In this document: one piece after another, positions 16,454 to 60,882 of the stretch
Layout: each line of letters begins with the position of its first letter
Position numbering within the stretch: position 1 is the first letter of the stretch
Source of the DNA: Escherichia coli
GTDB taxonomy: Bacteria; Pseudomonadota; Gammaproteobacteria; Enterobacterales; Enterobacteriaceae
DNA length: 64,000 bases
Direction: 5' to 3' (one strand)
NCBI RefSeq assembly: GCF_003334385.1
Contig: NZ_QOWN01000017.1
Position numbers and translations under genes: made by a program
Notes under the pieces: model-generated
Database searches by the model: none
The model's input: the letters and a program-made list of their open reading frames with translations, nothing else
Told to the model about the DNA's origin: nothing

Positions 16454-17395
16454 ATGCGCGAAAAGGATTATGTCGTAATTATAGGTTCGGCGAATATTGA
16501 TGTCGCCGGATATTCACATGAATCATTAAATTATGCGGATTCAAATCCAGGTAAAATAAAATTTACGCCTGGTGGAGTAGGGCGCAATATTGCACAAAAC
16601 CTGGCGTTGCTGGGTAACAAAGCCTGGCTACTGAGCGCCGTAGGCAGTGATTTTTATGGTCAATCGCTGCTAACGCAAACCAATCAATCTGGCGTTTATG
16701 TCGATAAATGCCTGATTGTGCCGGGAGAAAATACGTCGAGTTATTTATCATTACTCGATAATACCGGTGAAATGCTGGTTGCTATAAATGACATGAATAT
16801 TAGCAACGCTATTACAGCTGAATATCTCGCACAGCACGGTGAATTTATTCAGAGGGCAAAGGTCATTGTCGCGGACTGTAATATCAGTGAAGAGGCACTG
16901 GCATGGATTCTGGATAATGCCGCCAACGTACCCGTATTTGTCGATCCGGTTTCGGCATGGAAATGTGTCAAAGTGCGCGACCGTCTAAATCAGATCCACA
17001 CTCTCAAGCCAAACCGCCTTGAAGCGGAAACCCTGAGTGGGATTGCGCTGTCAGGGCGTGAAGATGTGGCAAAAGTTGCTGCCTGGTTCCATCAACATGG
17101 CCTGAACCGACTGGTATTGAGCATGGGCGGCGACGGCGTTTATTACAGCGATATCAGCGGTGAAAGTGGCTGGTCTGCGCCGATCAAAACCAATGTTATT
17201 AATGTTACCGGAGCGGGCGATGCCATGATGGCGGGACTTGCTTCGTGTTGGGTAGACGGAATGCCGTTTGCCGAATCTGTTCGTTTCGCACAGGGATGTT
17301 CGTCAATGGCGCTCTCCTGTGAATACACCAATAACCCCGATTTATCGATTGCCAACGTTATATCGTTAGTGGAGAACGCAGAATGTCTGAATTAA
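16454..17395 (+). CDS. psuK: pseudouridine kinase PsuK (PfkB family)
   Basis: 313 aa ORF, ribokinase/PfkB fold motifs (GAGDAMMAG); synteny with psuG, psuT. Confidence 0.85.
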   Translation: MREKDYVVIIGSANIDVAGYSHESLNYADSNPGKIKFTPGGVGRNIAQNLALLGNKAWLLSAVGSDFYGQSLLTQTNQSGVYVDKCLIVPGENTSSYLSLLDNTGEMLVAINDMNISNAITAEYLAQHGEFIQRAKVIVADCNISEEALAWILDNAANVPVFVDPVSAWKCVKVRDRLNQIHTLKPNRLEAETLSGIALSGREDVAKVAAWFHQHGLNRLVLSMGGDGVYYSDISGESGWSAPIKTNVINVTGAGDAMMAGLASCWVDGMPFAESVRFAQGCSSMALSCEYTNNPDLSIANVISLVENAECLN

Positions 17396-18327
17396 AAATT
17401 TCCCCTGAATTATTACAAATTTCCCCGGAAGTGCAGGACGCTTTAAAAAACAAAAAACCGGTTGTGGCGCTGGAATCGACCATTATTTCTCACGGGATGC
17501 CGTTCCCACAAAATGCCCAGACCGCAATTGAAGTTGAAGAAACTATTCGTAAACAGGGCGCTGTACCTGCCACGATCGCCATTATTGGCGGCGTGATGAA
17601 AGTGGGGTTAAGCAAAGAAGAAATTGAATTACTGGGTCGTGAAGGGCATAACGTGACCAAAGTTAGTCGTCGCGATTTACCTTTTGTTGTTGCCGCCGGA
17701 AAAAATGGCGCAACCACTGTGGCTTCAACGATGATTATTGCGGCGCTTGCCGGAATTAAAGTATTTGCCACCGGGGGAATTGGTGGTGTGCATCGCGGGG
17801 CGGAACATACCTTCGATATTTCTGCCGATTTGCAAGAACTGGCAAATACTAATGTCACCGTTGTTTGTGCCGGGGCGAAATCTATTCTCGATTTAGGATT
17901 AACCACTGAGTATTTAGAAACCTTCGGTGTGCCGTTAATTGGCTATCAGACTAAAGCGCTGCCTGCGTTTTTCTGCCGCACCAGCCCGTTTGACGTCAGC
18001 ATTCGTCTCGACAGCGCCAGCGAAATTGCCCGTGCAATGGCGGTGAAATGGCAAAGCGGTCTGAACGGTGGCCTCGTGGTAGCGAACCCGATCCCGGAAC
18101 AGTTTGCTATGCCGGAACACACTATCAATGCGGCGATCGATCAGGCGGTAGCTGAAGCTGAAGCTGAAGCTCAGGGAGTCATTGGTAAAGAAAGTACGCC
18201 ATTCCTGCTGGCGCGCGTTGCTGAACTGACCGGCGGTGACAGCCTGAAATCCAACATCCAGCTGGTGTTCAACAACGCCATTCTGGCGAGCGAAATTGCC
18301 AAAGAATATCAGCGTCTCGCGGGTTAA
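17383..18327 (+). CDS. psuG: pseudouridine-5'-phosphate glycosidase PsuG
   Basis: 314 aa ORF overlapping psuK by 13 nt; indigoidine synthase A-like family; contains (gctgaa)x3 in-frame repeat at 18151-18168. Confidence 0.85.
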   Translation: MSELKISPELLQISPEVQDALKNKKPVVALESTIISHGMPFPQNAQTAIEVEETIRKQGAVPATIAIIGGVMKVGLSKEEIELLGREGHNVTKVSRRDLPFVVAAGKNGATTVASTMIIAALAGIKVFATGGIGGVHRGAEHTFDISADLQELANTNVTVVCAGAKSILDLGLTTEYLETFGVPLIGYQTKALPAFFCRTSPFDVSIRLDSASEIARAMAVKWQSGLNGGLVVANPIPEQFAMPEHTINAAIDQAVAEAEAEAQGVIGKESTPFLLARVAELTGGDSLKSNIQLVFNNAILASEIAKEYQRLAG

Positions 18328-20569: not shown

Positions 20570-21511
20570 ATGGAAAAGAGAAAAATTATTCTGGATTGTG
20601 AGCCGGGTCATGATGATGCTATTGCTATAATGATGGCGGCGAAACATCCGGCAATAGATTTATTAGGCATCACTATTGTAGCGGGTAATCAGACGCTTGA
20701 TAAAACATTAATTAATGGCCTGAATGTTTGCCAGAAACTGGAGATTAATGTTCCGGTTTATGCGGGGATGCCGCAGCCCATTATGCGTCAACAAATCGTT
20801 GCCGATAATATTCACGGTGAAACCGGACTGGATGGCCCGGTATTCGAGCCGCTGACCCGCCAGGCAGAAAGCACTCATGCGGTGAAATATATCATTGATA
20901 CCCTGATGGCAAGCGATGGCGATATCACTCTGGTGCCGGTTGGTCCGCTTTCAAATATCGCGGTGGCAATGCGTATGCAACCCGCGATCCTGCCCAAAAT
21001 CCGTGAAATTGTGCTAATGGGCGGCGCTTACGGTACAGGCAACTTCACGCCATCTGCCGAGTTCAACATCTTTGCCGACCCGGAAGCCGCACGCGTAGTG
21101 TTCACCTCCGGCGTTCCATTAGTGATGATGGGCCTCGATCTCACCAACCAGACCGTTTGCACCCCGGACGTGATTGCTCGGATGGAAAGGGCAGGCGGCC
21201 CCGCCGGAGAGCTGTTCAGCGACATCATGAACTTCACTCTCAAAACGCAGTTCGAAAACTACGGCCTTGCTGGCGGCCCGGTGCACGACGCCACCTGCAT
21301 CGGTTATCTGATTAACCCTGATGGCATTAAAACCCAGGAGATGTACGTCGAAGTGGACGTCAACAGTGGCCCTTGCTATGGGCGTACCGTCTGCGACGAG
21401 CTGGGCGTTCTTGGCAAGCCCGCCAATACCAAAGTCGGCATCACTATTGATACAGACTGGTTCTGGGGATTAGTCGAAGAGTGCGTGCGCGGCTACATCA
21501 AAACCCATTAA
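20570..21511 (+). CDS. rihB: pyrimidine-specific ribonucleoside hydrolase RihB
   Basis: 313 aa ORF with inosine-uridine nucleoside hydrolase N-terminal DxDxxxDD motif ([11 protein letters not shown]). Confidence 0.85.
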
Positions 21512-22869: not shown

Positions 22870-22965
22870 GCCTGATGCGCAAGCTTATCAGGCCTACATT
22901 TACTTGCTGAAATTGCCTGATTTGTAGGCCGGATAAGACGCGTTAAGCGTCGCATCCGGCAACAT
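22870..22965. repeat. REP element pair (BIME-like)
   Basis: gcctgatgcgcaagcttatcaggcctaca and tgtaggccggataagacgcgttaagcgtcgcatccggcaa in opposite orientation. Confidence 0.6.
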
Positions 22966-22967
22966 TG

Positions 22968-24056
22968 TTACACCATTGGCACTAATGAAAGCGCGTTATC
23001 GGCAGACAGGGTAGGGTTGTTTAAGCTGCCGCTGGCGCGCGAAATTGCCGCGCAGGCTACCGCAAAACGGGCGCTGTCGCGGAAACTGTATCCTTCAAGA
23101 AAGCTATATACCAGGCCCGCCATAAAACCATCGTCAGCACCAAAACTGTCTACTGTCGTATGCGCTGGCGCGGTCAGCAAAAATTGTTCTCCATCCTTTT
23201 CGCTGCAATAAACTGACTCATCGGGCAAATAAACAAACAGTTGCTGAACACCTTGCTGATGCAATGCATTCACTGCGGTATTACGGTCAGCATCGCTGGT
23301 GATCGCCTGTCCCCATAAAATTTCCAGCTCCGGTAAAGTGGGTTTCAGGGTGTGAATATGCGCCAGCCAGTGTTTGATTTTGCCCGCTTTGAATTCTGAA
23401 ACGGTATCGACAAACACCGGGATTTCATCAGCGAGGGTAAAGACCCATTCCAGCGCCTCGGCTGTCAGGTTGCAATCAGCCAGTACCACGCCCGCATGAC
23501 GAAGTAAATCGCGCGACCCGTTCAGTAGTTGCGGTGTCAACTGTTCCAGCAGATGGGTATCGTTAATCGCCAGCACGGTTTGATCGTCTCGATTGGCAAT
23601 TGCCAGATACGTCGATGTGCTTTGACCATGCAAACGAACGCAGCCGGAGACATTCACGCCGGCACGGCGCGTTTCTTCCAGGAGCATTTCGCCATAAAAG
23701 TCATCGCCAATCACTGAAAGCAAATGGACGTCACGGCCTAACAGCGCCAGATTGTGGGCGATGTTGCGTCCCACGCCGCCCGCTGAGCAATGAATTGTAC
23801 CGGGATGAGAAGCCGATTGCGGGTAACGGATATCCGCCATCCCGCGAATATCCATATTGATTGTCCCCACCACTACGCAGTATTCCTGCTCGGTGAGAAT
23901 GTAACCTTTGCCTTTAATCCGGCCTTTGCGCATTAAATCCATAATATGCGCCGCAACGCGCGAACGGCTGATTTGCAGCATGTCCGCAATTTCGTTCTGC
24001 TGAATCAGCGGGTTACGCCGTAAAATTGCAAGGATCTCCTTTTCCCGGTTATTCAT
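22968..24056 (-). CDS. yeiI: PfkB-family sugar/nucleoside kinase with N-terminal HTH domain, YeiI
   Basis: 362 aa ORF; N-terminal winged-helix-like segment followed by ribokinase-like domain; paralogous to psuK. Confidence 0.8.
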   Translation of the reverse strand: MNNREKEILAILRRNPLIQQNEIADMLQISRSRVAAHIMDLMRKGRIKGKGYILTEQEYCVVVGTINMDIRGMADIRYPQSASHPGTIHCSAGGVGRNIAHNLALLGRDVHLLSVIGDDFYGEMLLEETRRAGVNVSGCVRLHGQSTSTYLAIANRDDQTVLAINDTHLLEQLTPQLLNGSRDLLRHAGVVLADCNLTAEALEWVFTLADEIPVFVDTVSEFKAGKIKHWLAHIHTLKPTLPELEILWGQAITSDADRNTAVNALHQQGVQQLFVYLPDESVYCSEKDGEQFLLTAPAHTTVDSFGADDGFMAGLVYSFLEGYSFRDSARFAVACAAISRASGSLNNPTLSADNALSLVPMV

Positions 24057-24058
24057 CT

Positions 24059-24916
24059 TCAGGCTACCGCTTTTTCAGTTTGTTGCGCTTTCAGCCAGGC
24101 GATCTCTTCTGCCCAGATATCCGGGTTGATGGTTTCGAGGATCAGCGGAATGCCGTCGAAACGGTCGTCCTGCATGATCCAGCGGAACGCATCATGACCG
24201 ATATTGCCTTCACCGAGGCTATGATGGCGGTCAACGCGGCTGCCAAAGGTGCTTTTCGCATCGTTAAGGTGCATCCCGCGCAGATACTTAAAGCCGACAG
24301 TACGGGCAAAATCCGCGAATGTTTTCTCGCATTCGGCTGGAGTACGCAAATCATACCCGGCAGCGAAAGCATGGCAGGTATCAATGCAGACGCCGACGCG
24401 GGATTTATCTTCCACGCCGTCGATAATCGCCGCGAGATGTTCGAATTTAAACCCTAAGTTACTGCCCTGACCGGCGGTGTTTTCTATCACCGCTGTCACA
24501 CCTTGAGTTTTATCCAGCGCAATGTTGATGGATTCGGCAATACGCGCAAGGCAATCCTCTTCTGAAATCTGCATCAGATGGCTGCCAGGGTGGAAGTTGA
24601 GCAAAGAAAGCCCCAGCTGTTCGCAACGCTGCATTTCATCTATAAAGGCATCGCGCGATTTTTCCAGAGCTTCAGTGACCGGATGTCCGAGGTTAATCAG
24701 ATAACTGTCGTGGGGAAGAATTTGCGCCGATGTGTAGTGATATTTTTCACAGGCGGCTTTGAATTCATCGATGGTTTGCGTCGTGAGCGGTGCGGCACGC
24801 CACTGACGTTGGTTTTTGGTGAACAAGGCAAACGCGGTTGCGTCGATTTCGGCGGCGCGAATTGCGGCATTTGCCAGACCGCCAGCAGCACTAACGTGCG
24901 CTCCAATGTATTTCAT
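24059..24916 (-). CDS. nfo: endonuclease IV (AP endonuclease) Nfo
   Basis: 285 aa ORF starting [16 protein letters not shown]-barrel AP endonuclease 2 family. Confidence 0.9.
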
Positions 24917-24989
24917 GCGAGGACTCCTGTTAAACCCGCTGGAGGAAAACGGTAATGATAGCGGGTTAACAGGAGCAAGATGTAGTGGT

Positions 24990-26039
24990 TTATGCGATGA
25001 CGCTTTGAATCACATAGTTAATCGCACCACCACCAACAATCAGCCAGGCAAACAGTACCAGTGCCATCAGCAGAGGTTTCGCCCCAGCTTTTTTCAGCGC
25101 GCTGACGTGAGTGGTCAGACCCAGCGCCGCCATCGCCATTGCCAGCAGGAAGGTATCCAGCGTTACCAGCATGTTCACCACGCTCTGCGGTAACAGGTGG
25201 AACGAGTTAAAGATGGCAACTACGATGAACAAGATGGCAAACCACGGAATAGTGATTTTGCTTTTCTCGCCGCTGTTCGCCCCAGACAGCTGTTTAACAC
25301 GCGCCGCCAGCAGGATGAGGAACGGAGCCAGCATCATCACGCGCAGCATTTTGGAAATAACTGCTGCGTTTTCCGCATCCGGGCTGATGGCATGACCTGC
25401 CGCCACCACCTGCGCCACTTCGTGCACAGTAGAACCAATGTAGATACCGAAAGTTTCCGGACTAAACCATTGAGACATCAGCGGATATATCGCCGGGTAG
25501 AGGAAAATCGCGACGGTCCCGAAGATAACAACGGTTGCAACAGCCACGGTTACTTTACTGGCTTCCGCTTTCACTACCGGCTCAGTCGCCAGTACCGCGG
25601 CAGCACCACAGATACTGCTACCGGCACCGATCAACCAGCTGGTGTGCTTATCCAGACCAAACACTTTCTGCCCCAGGAAGCAAGCCAGCAGGAAGGTACT
25701 GGACAGCGTCAACACGTCAATGATGATCCCACTGATACCGACATCGGCAATTTGCGAGAACGTCAGACGGAAGCCATAAAGAATGATACCCAGACGTAAT
25801 AAATATTGCTTGGCAAACAGCACACCACCGTCACAGCTTTTCCAGATGTGCGGATAGATGGTGTTGCCTAAAACCATCCCCAACAAGATTGCGAGGGTGA
25901 GGGCACTAAACCCGGCACCCGCAACCGCGGGAATGGAACCACCCCACAGGGCGACCCCGGTGATAACTGCACTCAGGGCTAACCCCGGAATAAAATGCCA
26001 CAGTGTACGATGTTGTTTCTGTAAGGTGATATTCGTCAT
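24990..26039 (-). CDS. yeiH: UPF0324 family inner membrane protein YeiH
   Basis: 349 aa polytopic membrane protein; divergent from LysR regulator yeiE. Confidence 0.8.
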
Positions 26040-26137
26040 AACCCTCTCCTTTAACCGGGCATAAGGTTACGACTAACTGGTTTAAAAATAAAATTGATTA
26101 TATATTTATAATTAATCTTTATAAGTGGTAAGCGACT

Positions 26138-27019
26138 ATGCACATCACCCTCCGGCAGTTGGAAGTTTTTGCAGAAGTATTGAAAAGTGGATCAACCACC
26201 CAGGCGTCGGTGATGCTGGCGTTGTCGCAATCAGCAGTGAGCGCAGCCTTGACCGACCTGGAAGGGCAGCTTGGCGTGCAACTGTTTGATCGCGTGGGGA
26301 AAAGACTGGTTGTTAATGAACACGGGCGGCTGCTCTATCCGCGTGCGTTGGCATTGCTTGAACAGGCGGTTGAAATCGAACAACTGTTTCGCGAAGACAA
26401 CGGCGCGATTCGTATCTATGCCAGTAGTACCATCGGTAACTACATTCTGCCTGCAGTTATCGCCCGTTATCGCCATGATTATCCGCAGTTGCCGATTGAA
26501 CTTAGCGTTGGGAATAGCCAGGACGTGATGCAAGCGGTGCTGGATTTCCGCGTTGATATTGGCTTTATTGAAGGACCGTGCCACAGCACTGAAATCATTT
26601 CTGAACCGTGGCTGGAAGACGAGCTGGTGGTTTTCGCCGCGCCGACTTCGCCGTTGGCCCGTGGTCCGGTCACCTTAGAACAGCTGGCCGCTGCGCCGTG
26701 GATCCTGCGTGAACGCGGTTCCGGCACGCGGGAGATTGTCGATTATCTGTTGCTGTCACATTTACCGAAGTTTGAGATGGCGATGGAATTAGGTAACTCC
26801 GAGGCAATCAAACATGCGGTGCGTCATGGGTTGGGAATTAGTTGCCTGTCGCGACGTGTGATTGAAGATCAATTGCAGGCAGGCACATTAAGTGAAGTTG
26901 CGGTCCCTCTGCCGCGCCTGATGCGTACGTTGTGGCGTATACATCATCGGCAAAAACACCTTTCCAACGCGCTACGGCGCTTTCTGGACTATTGCGATCC
27001 CGCAAATGTGCCGCGTTAA
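26138..27019 (+). CDS. yeiE: LysR-family transcriptional regulator YeiE
   Basis: 293 aa; N-terminal HTH and LysR substrate-binding domain; divergent arrangement with yeiH. Confidence 0.8.
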
Positions 27020-27223
27020 GTTGCTGTACAAGAACATGCTGGTGCTGTGTCGATTTCGTGACGCAGCGCCTTCAGCATGCATTCGCCAGAAAAGAGATTG
27101 GCTGCTTTACTTATAATCCCTGGGCGATCATGAAGGTGTCTTATAACCGTGTATTTCTGCCGGAAGGATTGCCAATCGTCTGCTACAATCGCGCCTCATT
27201 TTTAAGATGGATAGCATTTTTGT

Positions 27224-28693
27224 ATGGTTTCCGAAACTAAAACCACAGAAGCGCCGGGCTTACGCCGTGAATTAAAGGCGCGTCACCTGACGATGATTGC
27301 CATTGGCGGTTCCATCGGTACAGGTCTTTTTGTTGCCTCTGGCGCAACGATTTCTCAGGCAGGTCCGGGCGGGGCATTGCTCTCGTATATGCTGATTGGC
27401 CTGATGGTTTACTTCCTGATGACCAGTCTCGGTGAACTGGCTGCATATATGCCGGTTTCCGGTTCGTTTGCCACTTACGGTCAGAACTATGTTGAAGAAG
27501 GCTTTGGCTTCGCGCTGGGCTGGAACTACTGGTACAACTGGGCGGTGACTATCGCCGTTGACCTGGTTGCAGCTCAGCTGGTCATGAGCTGGTGGTTCCC
27601 GGATACACCGGGCTGGATCTGGAGTGCGTTGTTCCTCGGCGTTATCTTCCTGCTGAACTACATCTCAGTTCGTGGCTTTGGTGAAGCGGAATACTGGTTC
27701 TCACTGATCAAAGTCACGACAGTTATTGTCTTTATCATCGTTGGCGTGCTGATGATTATCGGTATCTTCAAAGGCGCGCAGCCTGCGGGCTGGAGCAACT
27801 GGACAATCGGCGAAGCGCCGTTTGCTGGTGGTTTTGCGGCGATGATCGGCGTAGCTATGATTGTCGGCTTCTCTTTCCAGGGAACCGAGCTGATCGGTAT
27901 TGCTGCAGGCGAGTCCGAAGATCCGGCGAAAAACATTCCACGCGCGGTACGTCAGGTGTTCTGGCGAATCCTGTTGTTCTATGTGTTCGCGATCCTGATT
28001 ATCAGCCTGATTATTCCGTACACCGATCCGAGCCTGCTGCGTAACGATGTTAAAGACATCAGCGTTAGTCCGTTCACCCTGGTGTTCCAGCACGCGGGTC
28101 TGCTCTCTGCGGCGGCGGTGATGAACGCAGTTATTCTGACGGCGGTGCTGTCAGCGGGTAACTCCGGTATGTATGCGTCTACTCGTATGCTGTACACCCT
28201 GGCGTGTGACGGTAAAGCGCCGCGCATTTTCGCTAAACTGTCGCGTGGTGGCGTGCCGCGTAATGCGCTGTATGCGACGACGGTGATTGCCGGTCTGTGC
28301 TTCCTGACCTCCATGTTTGGCAACCAGACGGTATACCTGTGGCTGCTGAACACCTCCGGGATGACGGGTTTTATCGCCTGGCTGGGGATTGCCATTAGCC
28401 ACTATCGCTTCCGTCGCGGTTACGTATTGCAGGGACACGACATTAACGATCTGCCGTACCGTTCAGGTTTCTTCCCACTGGGGCCGATCTTCGCATTCAT
28501 TCTGTGTCTGATTATCACTTTGGGCCAGAACTACGAAGCGTTCCTGAAAGATACTATTGACTGGGGCGGCGTAGCGGCAACGTATATTGGTATCCCGCTG
28601 TTCCTGATTATTTGGTTCGGCTACAAGCTGATTAAAGGAACTCACTTCGTACGCTACAGCGAAATGAAGTTCCCGCAGAACGATAAGAAATAA
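27224..28693 (+). CDS. lysP: lysine-specific permease LysP (APC family)
   Basis: 489 aa 12-TM amino acid permease; synteny. Confidence 0.9.
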   Translation: MVSETKTTEAPGLRRELKARHLTMIAIGGSIGTGLFVASGATISQAGPGGALLSYMLIGLMVYFLMTSLGELAAYMPVSGSFATYGQNYVEEGFGFALGWNYWYNWAVTIAVDLVAAQLVMSWWFPDTPGWIWSALFLGVIFLLNYISVRGFGEAEYWFSLIKVTTVIVFIIVGVLMIIGIFKGAQPAGWSNWTIGEAPFAGGFAAMIGVAMIVGFSFQGTELIGIAAGESEDPAKNIPRAVRQVFWRILLFYVFAILIISLIIPYTDPSLLRNDVKDISVSPFTLVFQHAGLLSAAAVMNAVILTAVLSAGNSGMYASTRMLYTLACDGKAPRIFAKLSRGGVPRNALYATTVIAGLCFLTSMFGNQTVYLWLLNTSGMTGFIAWLGIAISHYRFRRGYVLQGHDINDLPYRSGFFPLGPIFAFILCLIITLGQNYEAFLKDTIDWGGVAATYIGIPLFLIIWFGYKLIKGTHFVRYSEMKFPQNDKK

Positions 28694-28713
28694 GTTTCCT
28701 CCCTTCCTTGCTA

Positions 28714-28740
28714 AGCCCTCTCAACCGAGAGGGCTTTTTC
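28714..28740 (+). terminator. rho-independent terminator after lysP
   Basis: agccctctc aacc gagagggct followed by TTTTT. Confidence 0.6.
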
Positions 28741-28787
28741 AATTCCATTTCCCTGACAAATCATGCGGATATAAAATTTAACATTTG

Positions 28788-28818
28788 GATTGATAATTGT
28801 TATCGTTTGCATTATCGT
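28788..28818 (+). promoter_or_regulatory. Fur box-like operator in cirA promoter
   Basis: attgataattgttatcgtttgcattatcgtt resembles the GATAATGATAATCATTATC Fur consensus, located about 170 bp upstream of the cirA start. Confidence 0.55.
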
Positions 28819-28986
28819 TACACCGCAATCAAAAAAGGCTGACAAATCAGAGGCTGTTCCGGCTTTCTGGGATGATCACCTGCATAAAAAATAAGTCCAC
28901 CGCGATGCTGCCGTACGCAAGGGGACGTGAAGAAGATGTGAGCGATAACCCATTTTATTTTCGTAGTTACCTCATGGAGATATGGA

Positions 28987-30979
28987 ATGTTTAGGTTGAA
29001 CCCTTTCGTACGGGTCGGGCTGTGTTTGTCCGCTATTTCTTGTGCATGGCCTGTGTTAGCGGTCGATGATGATGGCGAAACGATGGTTGTCACTGCATCT
29101 TCCGTGGAACAAAATCTTAAAGATGCACCTGCCAGTATCAGCGTCATTACCCAGGAAGACCTGCAGCGAAAACCGGTACAGAATCTGAAGGATGTCCTCA
29201 AAGAAGTGCCTGGCGTACAACTGACGAACGAAGGGGATAACCGTAAGGGCGTTAGTATTCGTGGTCTGGACAGCAGCTATACCCTGATTCTCGTCGACGG
29301 TAAACGCGTGAACTCCCGCAATGCCGTCTTCCGCCACAATGATTTCGATCTGAACTGGATCCCGGTCGATTCCATCGAACGTATTGAAGTGGTCCGTGGC
29401 CCGATGTCGTCGCTGTACGGTTCCGATGCGCTCGGCGGTGTAGTGAATATCATCACCAAAAAAATCGGTCAGAAATGGTCGGGTACCGTTACCGTCGATA
29501 CCACCATTCAGGAACATCGCGATCGCGGTGACACCTATAACGGTCAGTTCTTTACCAGTGGACCATTAATTGATGGTGTGCTGGGAATGAAAGCTTACGG
29601 CAGCCTGGCAAAACGTGAAAAGGATGACCCGCAAAACTCAACGACCACCGATACCGGAGAAACGCCGCGTATTGAAGGATTCTCCAGCCGCGACGGCAAT
29701 GTCGAATTTGCCTGGACACCGAATCAAAATCACGATTTTACTGCCGGATACGGTTTCGACCGTCAGGATCGTGATTCCGACTCGCTGGACAAAAACCGCC
29801 TGGAACGCCAGAACTACTCCGTCAGCCATAATGGGCGTTGGGATTACGGCACCAGCGAACTGAAATACTACGGTGAGAAAGTCGAGAACAAAAACCCTGG
29901 CAACAGCAGCCCGATAACTTCCGAAAGCAATACGGTCGACGGCAAATACACGTTGCCGCTGACGGCGATTAATCAGTTTCTCACGGTTGGCGGTGAATGG
30001 CGTCACGACAAACTTAGCGATGCGGTGAACCTGACCGGGGGAACCAGCTCCAAAACGTCTGCCAGCCAGTACGCGCTGTTTGTGGAAGATGAATGGCGGA
30101 TCTTCGAGCCGCTGGCGCTGACGACCGGCGTGCGTATGGACGATCACGAAACCTACGGTGAACACTGGAGTCCGCGTGCCTACCTGGTTTTATAACGCCA
30201 CCGACACCGTAACGGTGAAAGGGGGCTGGGCGACGGCATTTAAAGCACCTTCTCTGTTGCAACTTAGCCCTGACTGGACGAGCAATTCCTGCCGTGGCGC
30301 ATGTAAGATTGTGGGTAGCCCGGATCTGAAACCAGAAACCAGCGAAAGTTGGGAGCTGGGGCTTTACTACATGGGTGAAGAAGGCTGGCTGGAAGGGGTT
30401 GAATCCAGCGTTACCGTTTTCCGTAACGATGTGAAAGATCGTATCAGCATCAGCCGTACGTCTGACGTCAACGCTGCACCGGGCTACCAAAACTTTGTTG
30501 GTTTTGAGACGGGCGCTAACGGACGGCGCATACCGGTATTTAGCTACTACAACGTTAACAAAGCTCGTATTCAGGGCGTGGAAACCGAACTGAAAATTCC
30601 GTTCAACGATGAATGGAAACTGTCGATCAACTACACCTACAACGATGGTCGTGATGTCAGCAACGGCGAAAACAAACCGCTATCCGATCTGCCGTTCCAT
30701 ACTGCTAACGGTACGCTGGACTGGAAACCGCTGGCGCTGGAAGACTGGTCATTCTATGTTTCTGGGCACTATACCGGGCAGAAACGCGCCGACAGCGCGA
30801 CGGCTAAAACACCGGGCGGTTATACCATCTGGAATACCGGCGCGGCCTGGCAGGTGACTAAAGACGTCAAACTGCGCGCAGGCGTGCTGAACCTTGGCGA
30901 CAAGGATCTCAGTCGTGACGACTACAGCTATAACGAAGACGGACGTCGTTACTTTATGGCAGTGGATTATCGCTTCTGA
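28987..30979 (+). pseudogene. cirA: catecholate siderophore / colicin I receptor CirA disrupted by a +1 frameshift (T-run 30188-30191)
   Basis: Two overlapping track ORFs (28987..30195, 402 aa; 30158..30979, 273 aa) that together give a TonB-dependent receptor once one T is removed from the TTTT run at 30188-30191; total span 1993 nt = 664 codons + 1 nt. Confidence 0.8.
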
Positions 30980-31010
30980 TGAGAAGATGCCCGGCGAACC
31001 GGGCGGACTT

Positions 31011-31880
<870 letters not shown>

Positions 31881-32104
31881 TCATCATACCGTTTATTCAA
31901 TGTGCTGTGAGTAACTTTCACTTCCGTATTTGCATAACGATGTTTTAACATCTGCTGATGAAAGGCAGCGGCAATTACAATAATTATCGCTGTGAATACT
32001 GGATTATGTGCGCCGCCTCACGCACAATAATCAGGCTGTAAATCAGCTTAATAACTTTGCCCCCACGCAGGGCGGAGGCGTCACACCTGCAGGAGAAATC
32101 ATAA

Positions 32105-32773
32105 ATGCCATCACTCAGTAAAGAAGCGGCCCTGGTTCATGAAGCGTTAGTTGCGCGAGGACTGGAAACACCGCTGCGCCCGCCCGTGCATGAAATGGAT
32201 AACGAAACGCGCAAAAGCCTTATTGCTGGTCATATGACCGAAATCATGCAGCTGCTGAATCTCGACTTGGCTGATGACAGTTTGATGGAAACGCCGCATC
32301 GCATCGCTAAAATGTATGTCGATGAAATTTTCTCCGGTCTGGATTACGCCAATTTCCCGAAAATCACCCTCATTGAAAACAAAATGAAGGTCGATGAAAT
32401 GGTCACCGTGCGCGATATCACTCTGACCAGCACCTGTGAACACCATTTTGTTACCATCGATGGCAAAGCGACGGTGGCCTATATCCCGAAAGATTCGGTG
32501 ATCGGTCTGTCAAAAATTAACCGCATTGTGCAGTTCTTTGCCCAGCGTCCGCAGGTGCAGGAACGTCTGACGCAGCAAATTCTTATTGCGCTACAAACGC
32601 TGCTGGGCACCAATAACGTGGCTGTCTCGATCGACGCGGTGCATTACTGCGTGAAGGCGCGTGGCATCCGCGATGCAACCAGTGCCACGACAACGACCTC
32701 TCTTGGTGGATTGTTCAAATCCAGTCAGAATACGCGCCACGAGTTTCTGCGCGCTGTGCGTCATCACAACTGA
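32105..32773 (+). CDS. folE: GTP cyclohydrolase I FolE
   Basis: 222 aa ORF; strong match to GTP cyclohydrolase I core (CEHH motif region). Confidence 0.9.
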
Positions 32774-32789
32774 TTAAAAGGCAGGAACC

Positions 32790-33947
32790 ATGGAGCGCAA
32801 CGTCACGCTCGATTTTGTTCGCGGCGTCGCCATTCTGGGGATCCTGCTATTAAACATCAGCGCCTTTGGGCTACCAAAGGCGGCTTATCTCAATCCCGCC
32901 TGGTACGGTGCTATTACGCCGCGGGATGCATGGACTTGGGCATTTCTTGATCTCATCGGCCAGGTGAAATTCCTCACGCTTTTTGCGCTACTGTTTGGTG
33001 CGGGCCTGCAAATGTTGCTGCCCCGTGGCAGACGCTGGATCCAGTCGCGGTTAACGCTGTTAGTCTTGTTGGGCTTTATTCACGGTTTATTGTTCTGGGA
33101 CGGCGATATTTTGCTGGCTTACGGGCTGGTGGGCTTAATCTGCTGGCGGCTGGTGCGCGATGCGCCATCGGTAAAAAGCCTGTTTAATACAGGCGTCATG
33201 CTTTATCTGGTGGGGCTTGGCGTTTTGCTGTTATTGGGGCTGATTTCCGACAGCCAGACCAGCCGCGCCTGGACGCCGGATGCATCGGCTATTTTGTATG
33301 AAAAATACTGGAAGCTTCACGGCGGCGTTGAAGCGATCAGTAATCGTGCCGATGGTGTTGGCAACAGTTTACTGGCACTGGGCGCACAGTATGGCTGGCA
33401 ACTGGCAGGGATGATGCTCATTGGTGCGGCGCTGATGCGCAGCGGCTGGCTGAAAGGGCAGTTCAGCTTACGTCACTATCGTCGTACTGGTTTTGTGCTG
33501 GTGGCGATTGGGGTGACCATTAACCTTCCTGCCATCGCCCTGCAATGGCAGCTGGACTGGGCGTATCGCTGGTGTGCCTTCTTACTTCAAATGCCGCGGG
33601 AACTGAGTGCGCCGTTTCAGGCGATTGGCTATGCGTCGCTGTTTTATGGCTTCTGGCCGCAATTGAGCCGCTTTAAGCTGGTGCTTGCGATCGCCTGCGT
33701 CGGACGGATGGCGCTGACCAACTATCTATTGCAAACGCTGATTTGTACCACGCTTTTTTACCACCTCGGTTTGTTTATGCATTTTGACCGCCTGGAGCTG
33801 CTGGCGTTTGTTATTCCGGTATGGCTGGCGAATATCCTCTTCTCTGTTATCTGGCTGCGTTACTTCCGCCAGGGGCCGGTGGAATGGCTCTGGCGTCAGT
33901 TAACTTTGCGTGCTGCCGGACCGGCAATATCTAAAACATCAAGATAA
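32790..33947 (+). CDS. yeiB: DUF418-family inner membrane protein YeiB
   Basis: 385 aa polytopic membrane protein 16 nt downstream of folE. Confidence 0.8.
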   Translation: MERNVTLDFVRGVAILGILLLNISAFGLPKAAYLNPAWYGAITPRDAWTWAFLDLIGQVKFLTLFALLFGAGLQMLLPRGRRWIQSRLTLLVLLGFIHGLLFWDGDILLAYGLVGLICWRLVRDAPSVKSLFNTGVMLYLVGLGVLLLLGLISDSQTSRAWTPDASAILYEKYWKLHGGVEAISNRADGVGNSLLALGAQYGWQLAGMMLIGAALMRSGWLKGQFSLRHYRRTGFVLVAIGVTINLPAIALQWQLDWAYRWCAFLLQMPRELSAPFQAIGYASLFYGFWPQLSRFKLVLAIACVGRMALTNYLLQTLICTTLFYHLGLFMHFDRLELLAFVIPVWLANILFSVIWLRYFRQGPVEWLWRQLTLRAAGPAISKTSR

Positions 33948-33977
33948 CGATCTGGATCACATTCGTTAACAAAACGG

Positions 33978-34012
33978 CTGTAACCGTTTCCATTGCTGTG
34001 ACTCGATTCACG
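33978..34012 (+). promoter_or_regulatory. galS promoter: gal operator-like site plus CRP-like site
   Basis: ctgtaaccgtttccat (33978-33993) resembles GalR/GalS operator GTGKAANCGNTTNCAC; tgtgactcgattcacg (33997-34012) resembles CRP TGTGA-N6-TCACA. Confidence 0.45.
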
Positions 34013-34088
34013 AAGTCCAGTATTCAGTGCTGACAAAATAGCCGCCAGCAAGCAGTCATTTACTGCAATCTCATAACAGGTAGTGAAT

Positions 34089-35129
34089 ATGATCACCATT
34101 CGTGATGTAGCGCGTCAGGCTGGCGTCTCTGTGGCAACGGTTTCCCGGGTGCTCAATAACAGCACGCTGGTCAGTGCCGACACGCGTGAAGCAGTAATGA
34201 AAGCCGTGAGTGAGCTGGATTATCGGCCAAACGCCAATGCCCAGGCGCTGGCAACTCAGGTTAGCGACACCATTGGCGTGGTGGTGATGGACGTTTCTGA
34301 TGCGTTTTTCGGCGCGCTGGTAAAAGCGGTGGATCTGGTCGCTCAGCAGCATCAGAAATACGTGCTAATCGGCAATAGCTATCATGAAGCGGAAAAAGAG
34401 CGTCACGCCATTGAGGTGTTAATTCGCCAGCGTTGTAATGCGTTGATTGTTCACTCAAAAGCATTGAGTGACGATGAACTGGCGCAATTTATGGATAACA
34501 TTCCCGGTATGGTGTTAATCAACCGCGTTGTGCCGGGGTACGCCCATCGTTGCGTTTGCCTGGATAATCTCAGCGGTGCCCGAATGGCGACGCGCATGTT
34601 GCTGAATAACGGTCATCAACGTATTGGTTATCTTTCTTCCAGCCACGGCATTGAAGATGACGCCATGCGTAAAGCAGGCTGGATGAGTGCGTTGAAAGAG
34701 CAGGATATTATTCCGCCGGAAAGCTGGATTGGCGCTGGTACGCCGGACATGCCGGGCGGTGAGGCGGCGATGGTTGAACTGCTGGGGCGCAATCTACAAC
34801 TTACCGCTGTATTTGCTTATAACGACAATATGGCCGCTGGCGCACTGACAGCATTAAAAGATAATGGCATTGCGATTCCGTTACATCTCTCAATCATCGG
34901 TTTCGATGATATTCCCATCGCCCGTTACACCGACCCGCAATTAACGACCGTGCGTTATCCCATTGCTTCAATGGCGAAATTAGCCACCGAACTGGCCTTG
35001 CAGGGGGCAGCAGGCAATATTGATCCTCGTGCCAGCCACTGTTTTATGCCGACGTTAGTGCGTCGCCATTCTGTCGCAACACGCCAGAATGCGGCGGCGA
35101 TCACTAACTCAACAAATCAGGCGATGTAA
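34089..35129 (+). CDS. galS: galactose operon isorepressor GalS (LacI family)
   Basis: Track ORF 34083..35129; start [23 protein letters not shown] (LacI HTH) gives 346 aa. Confidence 0.85.
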
Positions 35130-35158
35130 CCGCTTTCAATCTGTGAGTGATTTCACAG
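35125..35158 (+). promoter_or_regulatory. mglBAC promoter: gal operator-like site adjacent to consensus CRP site
   Basis: tgtaaccgctttcaat (35125-35140) gal-operator-like; tgtgagtgatttcaca (35143-35158) is a near-perfect CRP palindrome; about 250 bp upstream of mglB. Confidence 0.6.
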
Positions 35159-35408
35159 TATCTTAACAATGTGATAGCTATGATTGCACCGTTTTAACGT
35201 TGTAACCCGTATGTAACAGTGAATAATCACTTTTGCCGAGGTAACAGCGTCATAACAACAATTAAAGCCGTTTTCTGGAGCGTTACCGGGCATGGAAGAA
35301 CGAATTTTAAAAAGTGAGCTTCGGCGTTCAGTAACACTTCATTAACTCTACTGCCCCGCCGAGCATTTATCTCAAGCACTACCCTGCATAAGAAAAACCG
35401 GAGATACC

Positions 35409-36407
35409 ATGAATAAGAAGGTGTTAACCCTGTCTGCTGTGATGGCCAGCATGTTATTCGGTGCCGCTGCACACGCTGCTGATACTCGCATTGGTGTAAC
35501 AATCTATAAGTACGACGATAACTTTATGTCTGTAGTGCGCAAGGCTATTGAGCAAGATGCGAAAGCCGCGCCAGATGTTCAGCTGCTGATGAATGATTCT
35601 CAGAATGACCAGTCCAAGCAGAACGATCAGATCGACGTATTGCTGGCGAAAGGGGTGAAGGCACTGGCAATCAACCTGGTTGACCCGGCAGCTGCGGGTA
35701 CGGTGATTGAGAAAGCGCGTGGGCAAAACGTGCCGGTGGTTTTCTTCAACAAAGAACCGTCTCGTAAGGCGCTGGATAGCTACGACAAAGCCTACTACGT
35801 TGGCACTGACTCCAAAGAGTCCGGCATTATTCAAGGCGATTTGATTGCTAAACACTGGGCGGCGAATCAGGGTTGGGATCTGAACAAAGACGGTCAGATT
35901 CAGTTCGTACTGCTGAAAGGTGAACCGGGCCATCCGGATGCAGAAGCACGTACCACTTACGTGATTAAAGAATTGAACGATAAAGGCATCAAAACTGAAC
36001 AGTTACAGTTAGATACCGCAATGTGGGACACCGCTCAGGCGAAAGATAAGATGGACGCCTGGCTGTCTGGCCCGAACGCCAACAAAATCGAAGTGGTTAT
36101 CGCCAACAACGATGCGATGGCAATGGGCGCGGTTGAAGCGCTGAAAGCACACAACAAGTCCAGCATTCCGGTGTTTGGCGTCGATGCGCTGCCAGAAGCG
36201 CTGGCGCTGGTGAAATCCGGTGCACTGGCGGGCACCGTACTGAACGATGCTAACAACCAGGCGAAAGCGACCTTTGATCTGGCGAAAAACCTGGCCGATG
36301 GTAAAGGTGCGGCTGATGGCACCAACTGGAAAATCGACAACAAAGTGGTCCGCGTACCTTATGTTGGCGTAGATAAAGACAACCTGGCTGAATTCAGCAA
36401 GAAATAA
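35409..36407 (+). CDS. mglB: periplasmic D-galactose/D-glucose-binding protein MglB
   Basis: 332 aa with signal peptide ([11 protein letters not shown]). Confidence 0.9.
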
Positions 36408-36415
36408 GACTGATT

Positions 36416-36440
36416 GGGCGCAGTCTATTACTGCGCCCTT
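36416..36440 (+). terminator. intra-operon hairpin between mglB and mglA (attenuating terminator-like)
   Basis: gggcgcagt ctatt actgcgccc followed by TTATT. Confidence 0.45.
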
Positions 36441-36467
36441 ATTGTATGGCCAACAAGGTAAAATTAT

Positions 36468-37988
36468 ATGGTCAGCTCAACGACTCCGTCCTCCGGGGAA
36501 TACTTGTTGGAAATGAGCGGTATCAACAAGTCCTTTCCTGGTGTTAAGGCACTTGATAACGTTAATTTAAAAGTCCGGCCACATTCTATCCATGCATTAA
36601 TGGGGGAAAACGGTGCAGGAAAATCGACATTATTAAAATGCCTGTTTGGTATTTATCAAAAAGACTCCGGCACCATTTTATTCCAGGGTAAAGAGATCGA
36701 TTTCCATTCTGCAAAAGAAGCCCTGGAAAATGGTATTTCGATGGTACACCAGGAGTTAAACCTGGTATTACAACGTTCGGTGATGGATAACATGTGGCTG
36801 GGGCGATATCCCACCAAAGGCATGTTTGTCGATCAGGACAAAATGTACCGCGAAACCAAAGCGATTTTTGACGAACTGGATATTGATATCGATCCGCGTG
36901 CGCGCGTCGGCACATTATCCGTTTCGCAAATGCAGATGATCGAAATCGCCAAAGCGTTTTCCTATAACGCGAAAATTGTGATTATGGATGAACCGACTTC
37001 TTCGTTAACCGAAAAAGAGGTCAATCATCTGTTCACTATTATTCGTAAATTAAAAGAGCGCGGCTGCGGTATTGTTTATATCTCGCATAAAATGGAAGAA
37101 ATCTTCCAGTTATGTGATGAAGTTACCGTATTGCGCGACGGTCAGTGGATCGCCACCGAACCGCTGGCAGGACTGACGATGGACAAGATCATCGCCATGA
37201 TGGTTGGGCGTTCTCTTAACCAGCGTTTCCCTGACAAAGAAAACAAACCGGGCGAAGTCATCCTCGAGGTACGTAACCTGACGTCTCTGCGCCAGCCGTC
37301 GATTCGCGATGTCTCGTTTGATCTGCATAAAGGGGAGATCCTCGGTATTGCCGGTCTGGTGGGGGCGAAACGTACCGATATTGTTGAGACGTTATTTGGT
37401 ATTCGCGAGAAATCGGCTGGCACCATAACGTTGCACGGCAAACAGATCAATAACCATAATGCCAACGAAGCCATAAACCATGGATTTGCACTGGTAACTG
37501 AGGAGCGCCGCTCAACGGGAATTTATGCCTATCTGGATATTGGTTTTAACTCGTTAATTTCCAATATTCGCAACTACAAAAATAAAGTTGGTTTACTGGA
37601 TAACTCGCGGATGAAAAGCGATACCCAGTGGGTGATTGATTCGATGCGGGTAAAAACGCCGGGTCATCGGACGCAAATTGGTTCGCTCTCCGGTGGTAAT
37701 CAGCAAAAGGTGATTATTGGTCGCTGGCTACTAACGCAACCAGAAATATTAATGCTCGATGAACCGACGCGCGGTATTGATGTCGGGGCGAAGTTTGAAA
37801 TTTATCAGTTAATTGCCGAACTGGCGAAGAAAGGCAAGGGGATTATTATTATCTCCTCTGAAATGCCTGAGTTGTTAGGGATAACAGACCGTATTCTGGT
37901 CATGAGCAATGGTCTCGTTTCCGGAATTGTCGATACAAAAACAACAACGCAAAACGAAATTCTGCGTCTTGCGTCTTTGCACCTTTAA
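36468..37988 (+). CDS. mglA: galactose/methyl-galactoside ABC transporter ATP-binding protein MglA
   Basis: 506 aa with two ABC ATPase domains (Walker [10 protein letters not shown], signature LSGGNQQK). Confidence 0.9.
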
Positions 37989-38003
37989 GATTAGGGGCTT
38001 CCC

Positions 38004-39014
38004 ATGAGTGCGTTAAATAAGAAAAGTTTTCTTACTTACCTGAAAGAGGGCGGTATTTACGTCGTTCTTTTAGTTTTGCTGGCGATTATTATTTTCCAGG
38101 ACCCAACATTTTTAAGTCTGTTGAACTTAAGTAATATTCTCACCCAGTCATCGGTGCGTATTATTATCGCGCTCGGTGTGGCAGGGTTAATTGTCACCCA
38201 GGGGACCGATCTTTCTGCTGGTCGTCAGGTAGGGCTGGCGGCAGTGGTGGCTGCGACATTATTGCAGTCCATGGATAACGCCAACAAAGTGTTCCCGGAA
38301 ATGGCGACGATGCCGATTGCGCTGGTTATTCTGATTGTCTGTGCCATTGGTGCGGTGATCGGTTTGATCAACGGTCTGATTATCGCTTATCTCAACGTGA
38401 CGCCGTTCATTACCACGCTCGGCACGATGATCATCGTCTATGGCATCAACTCGCTCTATTACGACTTTGTCGGGGCGTCGCCAATTTCTGGTTTTGACAG
38501 TGGCTTCTCTACCTTTGCTCAGGGCTTTGTCGCGCTGGGGAGTTTCCGTCTCTCTTACATCACCTTCTACGCGTTGATTGCGGTGGCGTTCGTCTGGGTG
38601 TTGTGGAACAAAACCCGCTTCGGTAAGAACATTTTTGCCATTGGCGGTAACCCGGAAGCGGCAAAAGTATCTGGTGTCAACGTCGGCCTGAACCTGCTGA
38701 TGATCTACGCGTTGTCTGGCGTGTTCTATGCCTTTGGCGGGATGTTAGAAGCCGGACGTATCGGCTCTGCCACCAACAACCTCGGCTTTATGTATGAGCT
38801 GGATGCTATCGCGGCGTGCGTGGTAGGCGGTGTATCGTTCAGCGGCGGTGTGGGGACGGTGATTGGCGTGGTGACCGGGGTAATTATTTTTACCGTCATC
38901 AACTATGGCCTGACGTATATCGGCGTAAACCCATACTGGCAGTACATCATCAAAGGGGCGATTATTATCTTCGCCGTAGCGCTGGATTCACTGAAATACG
39001 CGCGTAAGAAATGA
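38004..39014 (+). CDS. mglC: galactose ABC transporter permease MglC
   Basis: 336 aa polytopic permease directly after mglA. Confidence 0.9.
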   Translation: MSALNKKSFLTYLKEGGIYVVLLVLLAIIIFQDPTFLSLLNLSNILTQSSVRIIIALGVAGLIVTQGTDLSAGRQVGLAAVVAATLLQSMDNANKVFPEMATMPIALVILIVCAIGAVIGLINGLIIAYLNVTPFITTLGTMIIVYGINSLYYDFVGASPISGFDSGFSTFAQGFVALGSFRLSYITFYALIAVAFVWVLWNKTRFGKNIFAIGGNPEAAKVSGVNVGLNLLMIYALSGVFYAFGGMLEAGRIGSATNNLGFMYELDAIAACVVGGVSFSGGVGTVIGVVTGVIIFTVINYGLTYIGVNPYWQYIIKGAIIIFAVALDSLKYARKK

Positions 39015-39059
39015 TGTGAATGTGGTCCGCATTCGGTCATAAACGCACATAACATCATG

Positions 39060-39250
39060 ATCTGTGTGGTTTTGTAGGCCGGATAAGGCGTTCACGCCGC
39101 ATCCGGCAACAGGAGCCAAATGCCGGATGCAACGCTGGCGCGTTTTATCCGGCCTACAATAAGCTCAACATACTGATTTGTATGGTTTTGTAGGCCGGAT
39201 AAGGCGTTCAAGCCGCATCCGGCGACAGGAACCAAATGCCGGATGCGTCT
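39060..39250. repeat. BIME cluster (two REP pairs)
   Basis: Two copies of tgtaggccggataaggcgttcaNgccgcatccggc with inverted partners gccggatgc..., between mglC and preA. Confidence 0.7.
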
Positions 39251-39256
39251 CTGGTT

Positions 39257-40492
39257 TTACAACGTTACCGGGTGTTCTTTCTCGCCTTTCTTAAACTTCA
39301 CTTCCCCGAGCTCAATACAACCCACCGGGCAGACGTGACCACAAAGCAGACAACCCACACATTTCTCGGTATTACAATGCGGTGTGCGGGTTTTCTCGCT
39401 CCATTCCATCGCCTGGTGACCGCCGTCGTAACAGGAAATATAACAGCGTCCACAGCCAACACATTTATCAAGATTGATACGGGGATAGACAATATAACTG
39501 CGGTCTAAATCTTCCGCCGGGACAATATTGTTATTCGCCAGACCTACCATCTCCTGCAGCGAATCAAATCCCTGATCGGCGAGATAATGCGACAACCCGC
39601 TTGCCATATCTTCCACTATCCGATACCCGTACTGCATGATGCCGGTGGTCACCTGTAACGTTGCTGCGCCGAGCAATAAAAACTCAGCCGCATCCTCCCA
39701 GGTTTCAATGCCGCCGATACCGCTGATTGGGAAATCGCGCAGTTCTGGATGGGTGCGCATTTGCTGAATGAAGCGCAGGGCGATCGGTTTTACCGCTTTA
39801 CCGGAATATCCGGAAATACTCGATTTTCCGTTAACGATCGGCATACCGATTTTCTGATTAAGATCGATATTGGTGATGGATTTAACGGTGTTAATCGCCG
39901 CAATGCCATCTGCGCCGCCGCGCTTCGCCGCCAGCGCCACTTCGCACATATCACCGATATTCGGCGTCATCTTCGCCAGCATTGGCAGCGTGGAACCCCG
40001 TTTCACTGCCCGACAATATTTTTCTACCAGCTCCGGGCTTTGCCCGACATCGCTACCCATCGCATGAGAAGTCATTTGCGGACAGGAGAAGTTACACTCG
40101 ATCATATCCGCGCCAGCTTCTTGCACCAGGCGCGCCAGCTCCTCCCATTGCTGCTCATTTTCCCCCATGATCGAAGCGATCAATACTTTGTCCGGGTAAT
40201 CTTCCTTCAGCCGACGCAGGGCGGCCAGATTCTCTTCCAACGGATGTTCAGCAATCTGCTCCATATTTTTGAAGCCGATAAAACCGGTATCTTCTTTCAC
40301 CAGATGATCAAAACGCGGCGAGACTTCGTTGGCGATAAAAAAGCCGATCGTTTTAAACACCACACCGCCCCAACCTGTGTCGTAGGCTTTGGCACACATC
40401 TCATAGCAGTTGCCTACCGGCGAAGAAGAGAGGCAGAACGGGTTGGGAAACTTCACGCCGCAAAAAGTAATCGAAAGATCTTTCGTTAACAT
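39257..40492 (-). CDS. preA: NAD-dependent dihydropyrimidine dehydrogenase subunit PreA
   Basis: Track ORF 39257..40498; DHOD-like TIM barrel plus C-terminal 2x[4Fe-4S] ferredoxin cysteine clusters; about 411 aa from MLTKDLS. Confidence 0.85.
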
Positions 40493-60160: not shown

Positions 60161-60845
60161 TTAAATGCCGAGTGGGAAAATATCATGGCCTTGTTCTTGC
60201 CAACTGGTGAGTTGCTGCTGTTGGGCGGAGGTTCGATTTTCACCGCACCACACCAGCAATGTACGGCCTTCGAATAGTTCAGGGCGTAGTTGATTGAGCG
60301 AGTGGGCGAGGACATCAATGCGCCATCCTTGTTGACTGGCAATCCAGCCCTCCAGCCACAGACGGGTGGTATCCTGAATATTCCAGCCAACCACCAGCGC
60401 ATCTTTACCCTGTTTTTTACGTGCCGAAGCCAGACAAATGGCGATGTAGTTGATCAGTACGCCGTCGAGGATCGCCAGCAGCGCCTGGAGAGTCGGTTGT
60501 TGGCACTGAAGCCGTCGGCGCAGAGGAATAAACAGATGTGTGGTGAGTGTCTGGGCGGGGTAATCCTGACCGCGCTCTTTGATCCACGTTCGCAGGCTAT
60601 GTAGATTGCCGCTTTGCAGGTAAGTCAGTAATGTTTCTTGCTGATCGCGCCAGCCGTTCTGCACATCAACATTTTCATTACTGAGCAGCATTTTAACTTT
60701 GCTGACCTGCACGCCGTTGTCGATCCAGCGTTTGATCTCGCGGATCCGGTCAATATCGGCATCGTTGAACAGCCGATGACCGCCGTCTGTCCGTTGCGGT
60801 TTCAGCAATCCGTAACGCCTCTGCCACGCGCGTAACGTGACAGGG
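60161..60845 (-). pseudogene. mlrA: MerR-family regulator MlrA (YehV), 3' fragment truncated by prophage insertion
   Basis: Minus-strand frame encodes ...PVTLRAWQRRYGLLKPQRTDGGHRLFNDADIDRIREIKRW... but the N-terminal HTH start is missing; similarity to MlrA ends near 60845, where integrase-adjacent phage DNA begins. Confidence 0.8.
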
Positions 60846-60882
60846 ATTAAGGGTAAACTAATTGATTTTGCAAGTTTTTATT

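Follow-up and report, generated by a model that had tools for sequence, protein, structure and literature searches.

The cirA gene in the analysed window, meaning the whole stretch of 64,000 nucleotides of Escherichia coli DNA under study, carries one extra T within a short T run, and the results make it highly probable that this is a genuine one-base insertion, inherited vertically, by which cirA has become a pseudogene in a small, naturally occurring phylogroup-A clade related to strain SCU-104 (ST8125). The first-pass annotation had proposed that a +1 change in the T run splits cirA into two overlapping ORFs and that removal of one T restores a single frame of 663 codons, and both proposals were borne out. 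The window reads TTTT at positions 30188-30191 where wild-type cirA has TTT, and the sequence from 30178 to 30195 is GCC TAC CTG GTT TTA TAA. The gene is 1993 nt long in the window compared with 1992 nt for cirA of K-12 MG1655, the length of the T run being the sole difference. Alignment with K-12 cirA, one of the checks that had been recommended, showed no mismatch on either side of the T run. With one T deleted, the window gene has 663 codons plus a stop; its DNA is then base-for-base that of K-12 and the encoded protein is identical to K-12 CirA. The features of the locus are the following.

28786-28824, + strand: AT-rich region upstream of cirA, GATAATTGTTATCGTTTGCATTATCGTT, a presumed iron-regulated promoter region.
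28987-30979, + strand: the cirA pseudogene, covering the whole former coding region and equal to K-12 cirA plus one T.
30188-30191, + strand: the T4 run (T3 in the wild type) with the +1 insertion, changing Tyr402 to Leu followed by a TAA stop at 30193-30195.
28987-30195, + strand: the 5' ORF of 402 codons ending ...PRAYLVL*, which runs from the signal peptide through the TonB-box region and the plug (Pfam 44-152) into the initial part of the barrel.
30158-30979, + strand: the 3' ORF of 273 codons starting from GTG at 30158 in the original downstream frame, with the remaining barrel and no signal peptide of its own.

The ORF listing of the window showed the 5' and 3' ORFs to overlap in different frames, and gene callers start the 3' ORF at the GTG at 30176 to give a product of 267 aa. 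Identification of the gene as cirA, also made in the first-pass annotation, was upheld by the neighbouring genes, by 100% identity to K-12 apart from the one T and by the presence of Plug and TonB-dependent barrel domains. The gene is flanked by lysP (27224-28693) and yeiG (31011-31847) in the same order as in K-12 and SCU-104. Residues 26-663 of K-12 CirA match the PDB entries 2HDF and 2HDI, described as 'Colicin I receptor', with an E value of 0. In intact CirA, Pfam places the Plug domain at residues 44-152 and the TonB-dependent barrel at residues 221-636, and the break at codon 402 therefore lies in the middle of the barrel. A plug and complete barrel in one polypeptide were not found in the window, the barrel being divided between the two ORFs, and cirA is therefore classified as a pseudogene rather than as a functional member of the CirA family. 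The gene has undergone no further decay beyond the inserted T, which suggests that the loss is recent and that deletion of one base could restore the gene.

Translation of the window allele would end after residue 402 (p.Tyr402Leufs*2; T3 to T4). The 402-residue fragment would retain the signal peptide, the TonB box and the plug, together with about half of the 22-strand barrel on its N-terminal side. Missing would be the C-terminal 262 residues, among them the ...YRF at the very end that serves as an assembly signal. The terminal ...YRF motif is required for insertion of outer-membrane proteins, and the fragment would be expected to fail to insert in the outer membrane. The product of the downstream ORF would have no signal peptide, and the cell would be left with no CirA. 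Loss of CirA function is a strong prediction from the sequence. Uptake of linear catecholates through CirA would be lost, a function that FepA and Fiu also serve. The cell would further be expected to be insensitive to colicins Ia and Ib, microcin V and Mcc1229, and the cefiderocol MIC would be expected to rise several-fold. The first-pass annotation had called loss of CirA a known route to colicin and microcin resistance; this agrees with published work in which resistance to colicins Ia/Ib and microcins on loss of CirA is established biology (PMC8853679, PMC10830755), the phenotype being predicted for the window.

The distribution of the allele was determined with exact-match queries of 40 nt and 90 nt centred on the site and directed against 5,426 complete E. 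coli genomes. TTTT was present in one, that of SCU-104 (NZ_CP053284.1), and all others had TTT. SCU-104 is a commensal of a healthy student and belongs to phylogroup A, ST8125; the corresponding locus, HHJ22_RS16495, is labelled 'catecholate siderophore receptor CirA, frameshifted' by RefSeq/PGAP. The possibility that the window is SCU-104 itself was rejected, since the two differ by approximately 30 SNPs over the 64 kb; the central 42 kb accounts for 18 of these and also contains one indel of a 6-bp repeat unit. Among public contigs (NCBI, JGI/IMG, Logan and ENA), 99 encoded the exact 402-aa product and 103 the C-terminal product of 267 aa. The allele, with the same neighbouring genes, was present on contigs of both ERZ28616395 and ERZ28664475, which are distinct metagenome assemblies in ENA. 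A 27-mer containing TTTT had no match in a scan of JGI metagenome contigs.

Inheritance of the insertion was evaluated in an alignment of window positions 22940-40195 over eight sequences. The four carriers, comprising the window, SCU-104 and two metagenome contigs (L003 and L004), share a T at 32267 and a T at 37286, whereas the closest non-carriers have C and A at these positions. The non-carriers are SW071611 (wastewater, Galapagos), EC2 (urinary tract, Australia) and TOE17 (faeces, Myanmar), in all of which cirA is intact and encodes the K-12 protein WP_000489247.1. Since the linked SNPs are shared by the carriers and absent from the nearest relatives with intact cirA, the results indicate that the allele was inherited within the clade. 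The carriers differ pairwise by 1-6 SNPs in the 17 kb compared, and a nonsense mutation in rihB (21335 C>T), found only in SCU-104 and one metagenome contig, is later than the cirA insertion. The linked SNPs together with this nested diversity point to a single origin of the insertion in this background, after which the clade diversified. In the window rihB (20570-21511) is intact and encodes 313 aa; in the annotations of SW071611 and EC2 the gene is frameshifted, and it is decaying repeatedly in this lineage.

The identical +T allele of cirA was also found on a second, ST540-like haplotype encoding CirA N540S and diverging by approximately 0.5% from the K-12-like haplotype of the window. This haplotype was represented by ENA ERZ27246550 (L005/L016) and Logan SRR13318125 (L017), at positions equivalent to 29532-30814 of the window. 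Contig L005 and the Logan contig differ by 4 SNPs in 14.3 kb and are separated by 76 SNPs from the window. The N540S-type haplotype of cirA, with or without the insertion, was present in none of the complete genomes. On account of this absence L005 was at first viewed as a chimeric metagenome contig, a view weakened by the finding that SRR13318125 has the same combination of +T and N540S; a chimera is now less likely, and ERZ27246550 and SRR13318125 possibly derive from one sample. The insertion could have reached the second haplotype by either recombination or recurrence. The informative sites nearest the insertion are at 29607 and 30472, and consequently any recombined stretch of less than 865 bp would be invisible. 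The intervening SNP-free tract of 864 bp was discarded as evidence of recombination, being not significant in view of gaps of that length that are common along the same alignment. Recombination or shared ancestry is nevertheless more likely than a second identical mutation, based on the many better targets for slippage that cirA offers.

Inactivation of cirA is not confined to the +T allele. Several of the best matches to cirA among complete genomes have ISVsa5, IS150 or IS1 inside the gene. A 424-aa product ending at a stop in place of Q425 (Q425*) was encoded on 47 contigs of the protein collection, and a 276-aa C-terminal cirA ORF was present on 624 contigs. In the four genomes inspected (L018-L021) the 276-aa ORF was paired with four different stops, E374*, R371*, Q361* and W370*. 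The E374* allele was found in one of the 5,426 complete genomes. Null alleles that are numerous and individually rare are consistent with a receptor that is lost repeatedly.

The question of why the null allele became established in this clade admits two answers. According to the first, a credible explanation although one that falls somewhat short of probable, the allele became fixed in a small clade through drift or hitch-hiking, in the absence of any selection by bacteriocins, phages or drugs. The redundancy of CirA with FepA and Fiu is in accord with neutral loss, as are the rarity of the +T allele (1/5,426 complete genomes), the like rarity of each other cirA null allele checked and the decay, in several ways, of neighbouring rihB in this lineage. 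Further, nothing about the commensal SCU-104 points in an obvious way to bacteriocins; its only plasmid, examined for a link to colicins, is of 1.5 kb with just two small ORFs, and the idea of a colicin plasmid was dismissed. Drift is less easily reconciled with the many independent knock-outs of cirA (Q361*, W370*, R371*, E374*, Q425*, IS1, IS150 and ISVsa5), with the same +T on two haplotype backgrounds and with the finding that selection by microcin in the laboratory directly yields cirA frameshifts. The second answer, advanced only tentatively and judged rather unlikely, is that positive selection repeatedly favours the cirA null state in gut E. coli, acting through short-tract recombination of a favoured null allele or through recurrence. 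If true, bacteriocin warfare would keep commensals insensitive to colicins Ia/Ib and microcin V in healthy people, and those commensals would have a reduced uptake of cefiderocol independent of use of the drug. The breadth of cirA knock-outs and the presence of a null allele on two backgrounds could be the starting point of a population-genetic test of receptor loss driven by bacteriocins.

Explanations in which the organism has an intact or expressible cirA fared much worse than neutral loss. The first-pass annotation had cautioned that the extra T may be a sequencing artefact, that is, a homopolymer-length miscall placing in the assembly a T absent from the organism. Homopolymer indels are frequent among long-read errors, and the SCU-104 assembly is a MinION/MiSeq hybrid from a project that left residual errors in some of its assemblies (PMC7407071); for this reason SCU-104 alone is insufficient to settle the question. 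The caution is answered by the presence of the insertion both in that second isolate and in metagenome assemblies made independently, with 99 contigs overall, and by its co-segregation with the two linked SNPs. The site is also an improbable one for a miscall, since wild-type cirA has 72 three-base runs and one A7 run, with 17 runs of four bases and four of five bases besides, and the run affected is of just 3-4 bases. Finally, the window and SCU-104 differ by no other 1-bp indel across the 64 kb. The artefact reading is exceedingly improbable and effectively excluded, and the frameshift is to be retained as biology and not 'corrected' as a homopolymer error.

A similarly minute probability is assigned to phase variation, in which the T run would be a contingency tract flipping cirA on and off at high frequency. 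The lesion is indeed a change in length of a mononucleotide run that is revertible by deletion of one base. Known contingency tracts, however, have approximately 7 or more repeats, compared with a run of 3 or 4 T at this site. Moreover, the two states are not mixed: the four clade members have T4, and the nearest relatives and the 5,425 other complete genomes have T3.

Least probable of all is programmed recoding, which the first-pass annotation had named as a finding that would overturn its reading and by which a +1 shift of the ribosome at the T run, or slippage of the polymerase, would still produce full-length CirA: a stop directly after the run in the shifted frame (GUU UUA UAA) could in principle pause ribosomes, but the insertion is a rare derived state (1/5,426 complete genomes) within a gene otherwise base-for-base that of K-12, which makes an evolved recoding signal impossible, and neither a motif nor a stable downstream structure was found at the site. 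The CUU-UGA-C motif of the prfB type is absent, the only GGAG lies approximately 20 nt upstream at the wrong spacing, re-pairing of the tRNA in the +1 frame would probably be poor, and the 87 nt downstream have a folding energy in the range of shuffled sequences (z = -0.9). Transcriptional slippage needs far more than four U residues. The frameshift is also not conserved in homologues, as would be expected of a programmed site of the prfB type, cirA being in a single frame with TTT in 5,425 of the 5,426 complete E. coli genomes.

The region upstream of cirA and other parts of the window were also inspected. The AT-rich stretch GATAATTGTTATCGTTTGCATTATCGTT lies in what we take to be the promoter and Fur region of cirA; a search upstream of the gene for the Fur-box consensus gave no match at up to 3 mismatches. 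Directly 3' of this stretch, at 28822 and 165 nt 5' of the cirA ATG, is a G>A change private to the window, with G in 7/7 relatives. It may be that the promoter region of an already dead gene is decaying neutrally, or the change may be irrelevant.

In psuG (ORF 17383-18327) the window has at 18150-18155 one copy more of a GCTGAA (Ala-Glu) repeat than SCU-104. The change is in frame, giving 314 aa compared with 312 aa in the relatives, and 25-kb matches elsewhere are also 6 bp shorter. A prophage occupies approximately 60161-64000 on the - strand and includes ORFs for an integrase (60883-62169) and an excisionase (62203-62457) as well as phage-type genes with DUF551 and DUF4222. The prophage adjoins mlrA (yehV), a known site of attachment of lambdoid prophages, and the end of the window falls inside the prophage. 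The prophage adjacent to mlrA is common to SCU-104, SW071611, EC2 and TOE17. The mglC-preA intergenic region contains two 80-bp copies with 91% identity, at approximately 39051-39130 and 39167-39246 and 116 bp apart, which are probably intergenic repeats of the REP/BIME type. The many extra match places per record in the search with the 39-64 kb portion suggest dispersed repeats.

The results describe a natural commensal clade in which colicins Ia/Ib and microcin V are predicted to be without effect and the cefiderocol MIC to be several-fold higher. The allele is one more of a known class: the gene, the type of lesion and its effects are all textbook knowledge, and RefSeq already labels the allele as frameshifted. 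The closest counterpart is HHJ22_RS16495 of SCU-104, an identical allele, the window being another genome of the same clade at approximately 30 SNPs over 64 kb.

Spontaneous Mcc1229-resistant mutants of E. coli also carry cirA frameshifts (PMC8853679). The window allele resembles those of E. coli mutants selected with Mcc1229 or colicin in combining a cirA frameshift with a premature stop, by which bacteriocin entry through CirA/TonB is lost. The selected mutants are, however, laboratory derived with lesions near the 5' end of the gene, whereas the allele described here is a natural one at codon 402 circulating in gut E. coli.

A second group of counterparts is linked to cefiderocol. Truncations of cirA are associated with cefiderocol resistance in Enterobacterales (PMC8906715), incomplete CirA is found in 1.27% of K. 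pneumoniae genomes (PMC12054181), and the cefiderocol MIC of the Keio delta-cirA strain is 8-fold higher (bioRxiv 10.1101/2025.11.06.687119). Common to these cases and the window is a truncating mutation through which the main uptake receptor for catechol-cephalosporins is lost or, for the window, predicted to be lost. The cefiderocol-linked cases are mostly clinical carbapenemase producers under the drug, whereas SCU-104, the sole carrier of known origin, is a commensal of a healthy person; the window itself is without a resistance context, unlike the clinical isolates.

A parallel in mode of inheritance is an outbreak clade of Salmonella enterica serovar Reading in which cirA c.680delC is fixed and the receptor is truncated at residue 278 (PMC10830755). 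The frameshift in serovar Reading lowers susceptibility to colicin and cefiderocol (PMC10830755). In both instances a one-base indel in cirA that truncates the receptor is inherited by a whole clade, an emergent one in serovar Reading. The two differ in species, in site and in the nature of the indel, a deletion in serovar Reading as opposed to the insertion found here, and the phenotype measured for serovar Reading is predicted for the E. coli clade.
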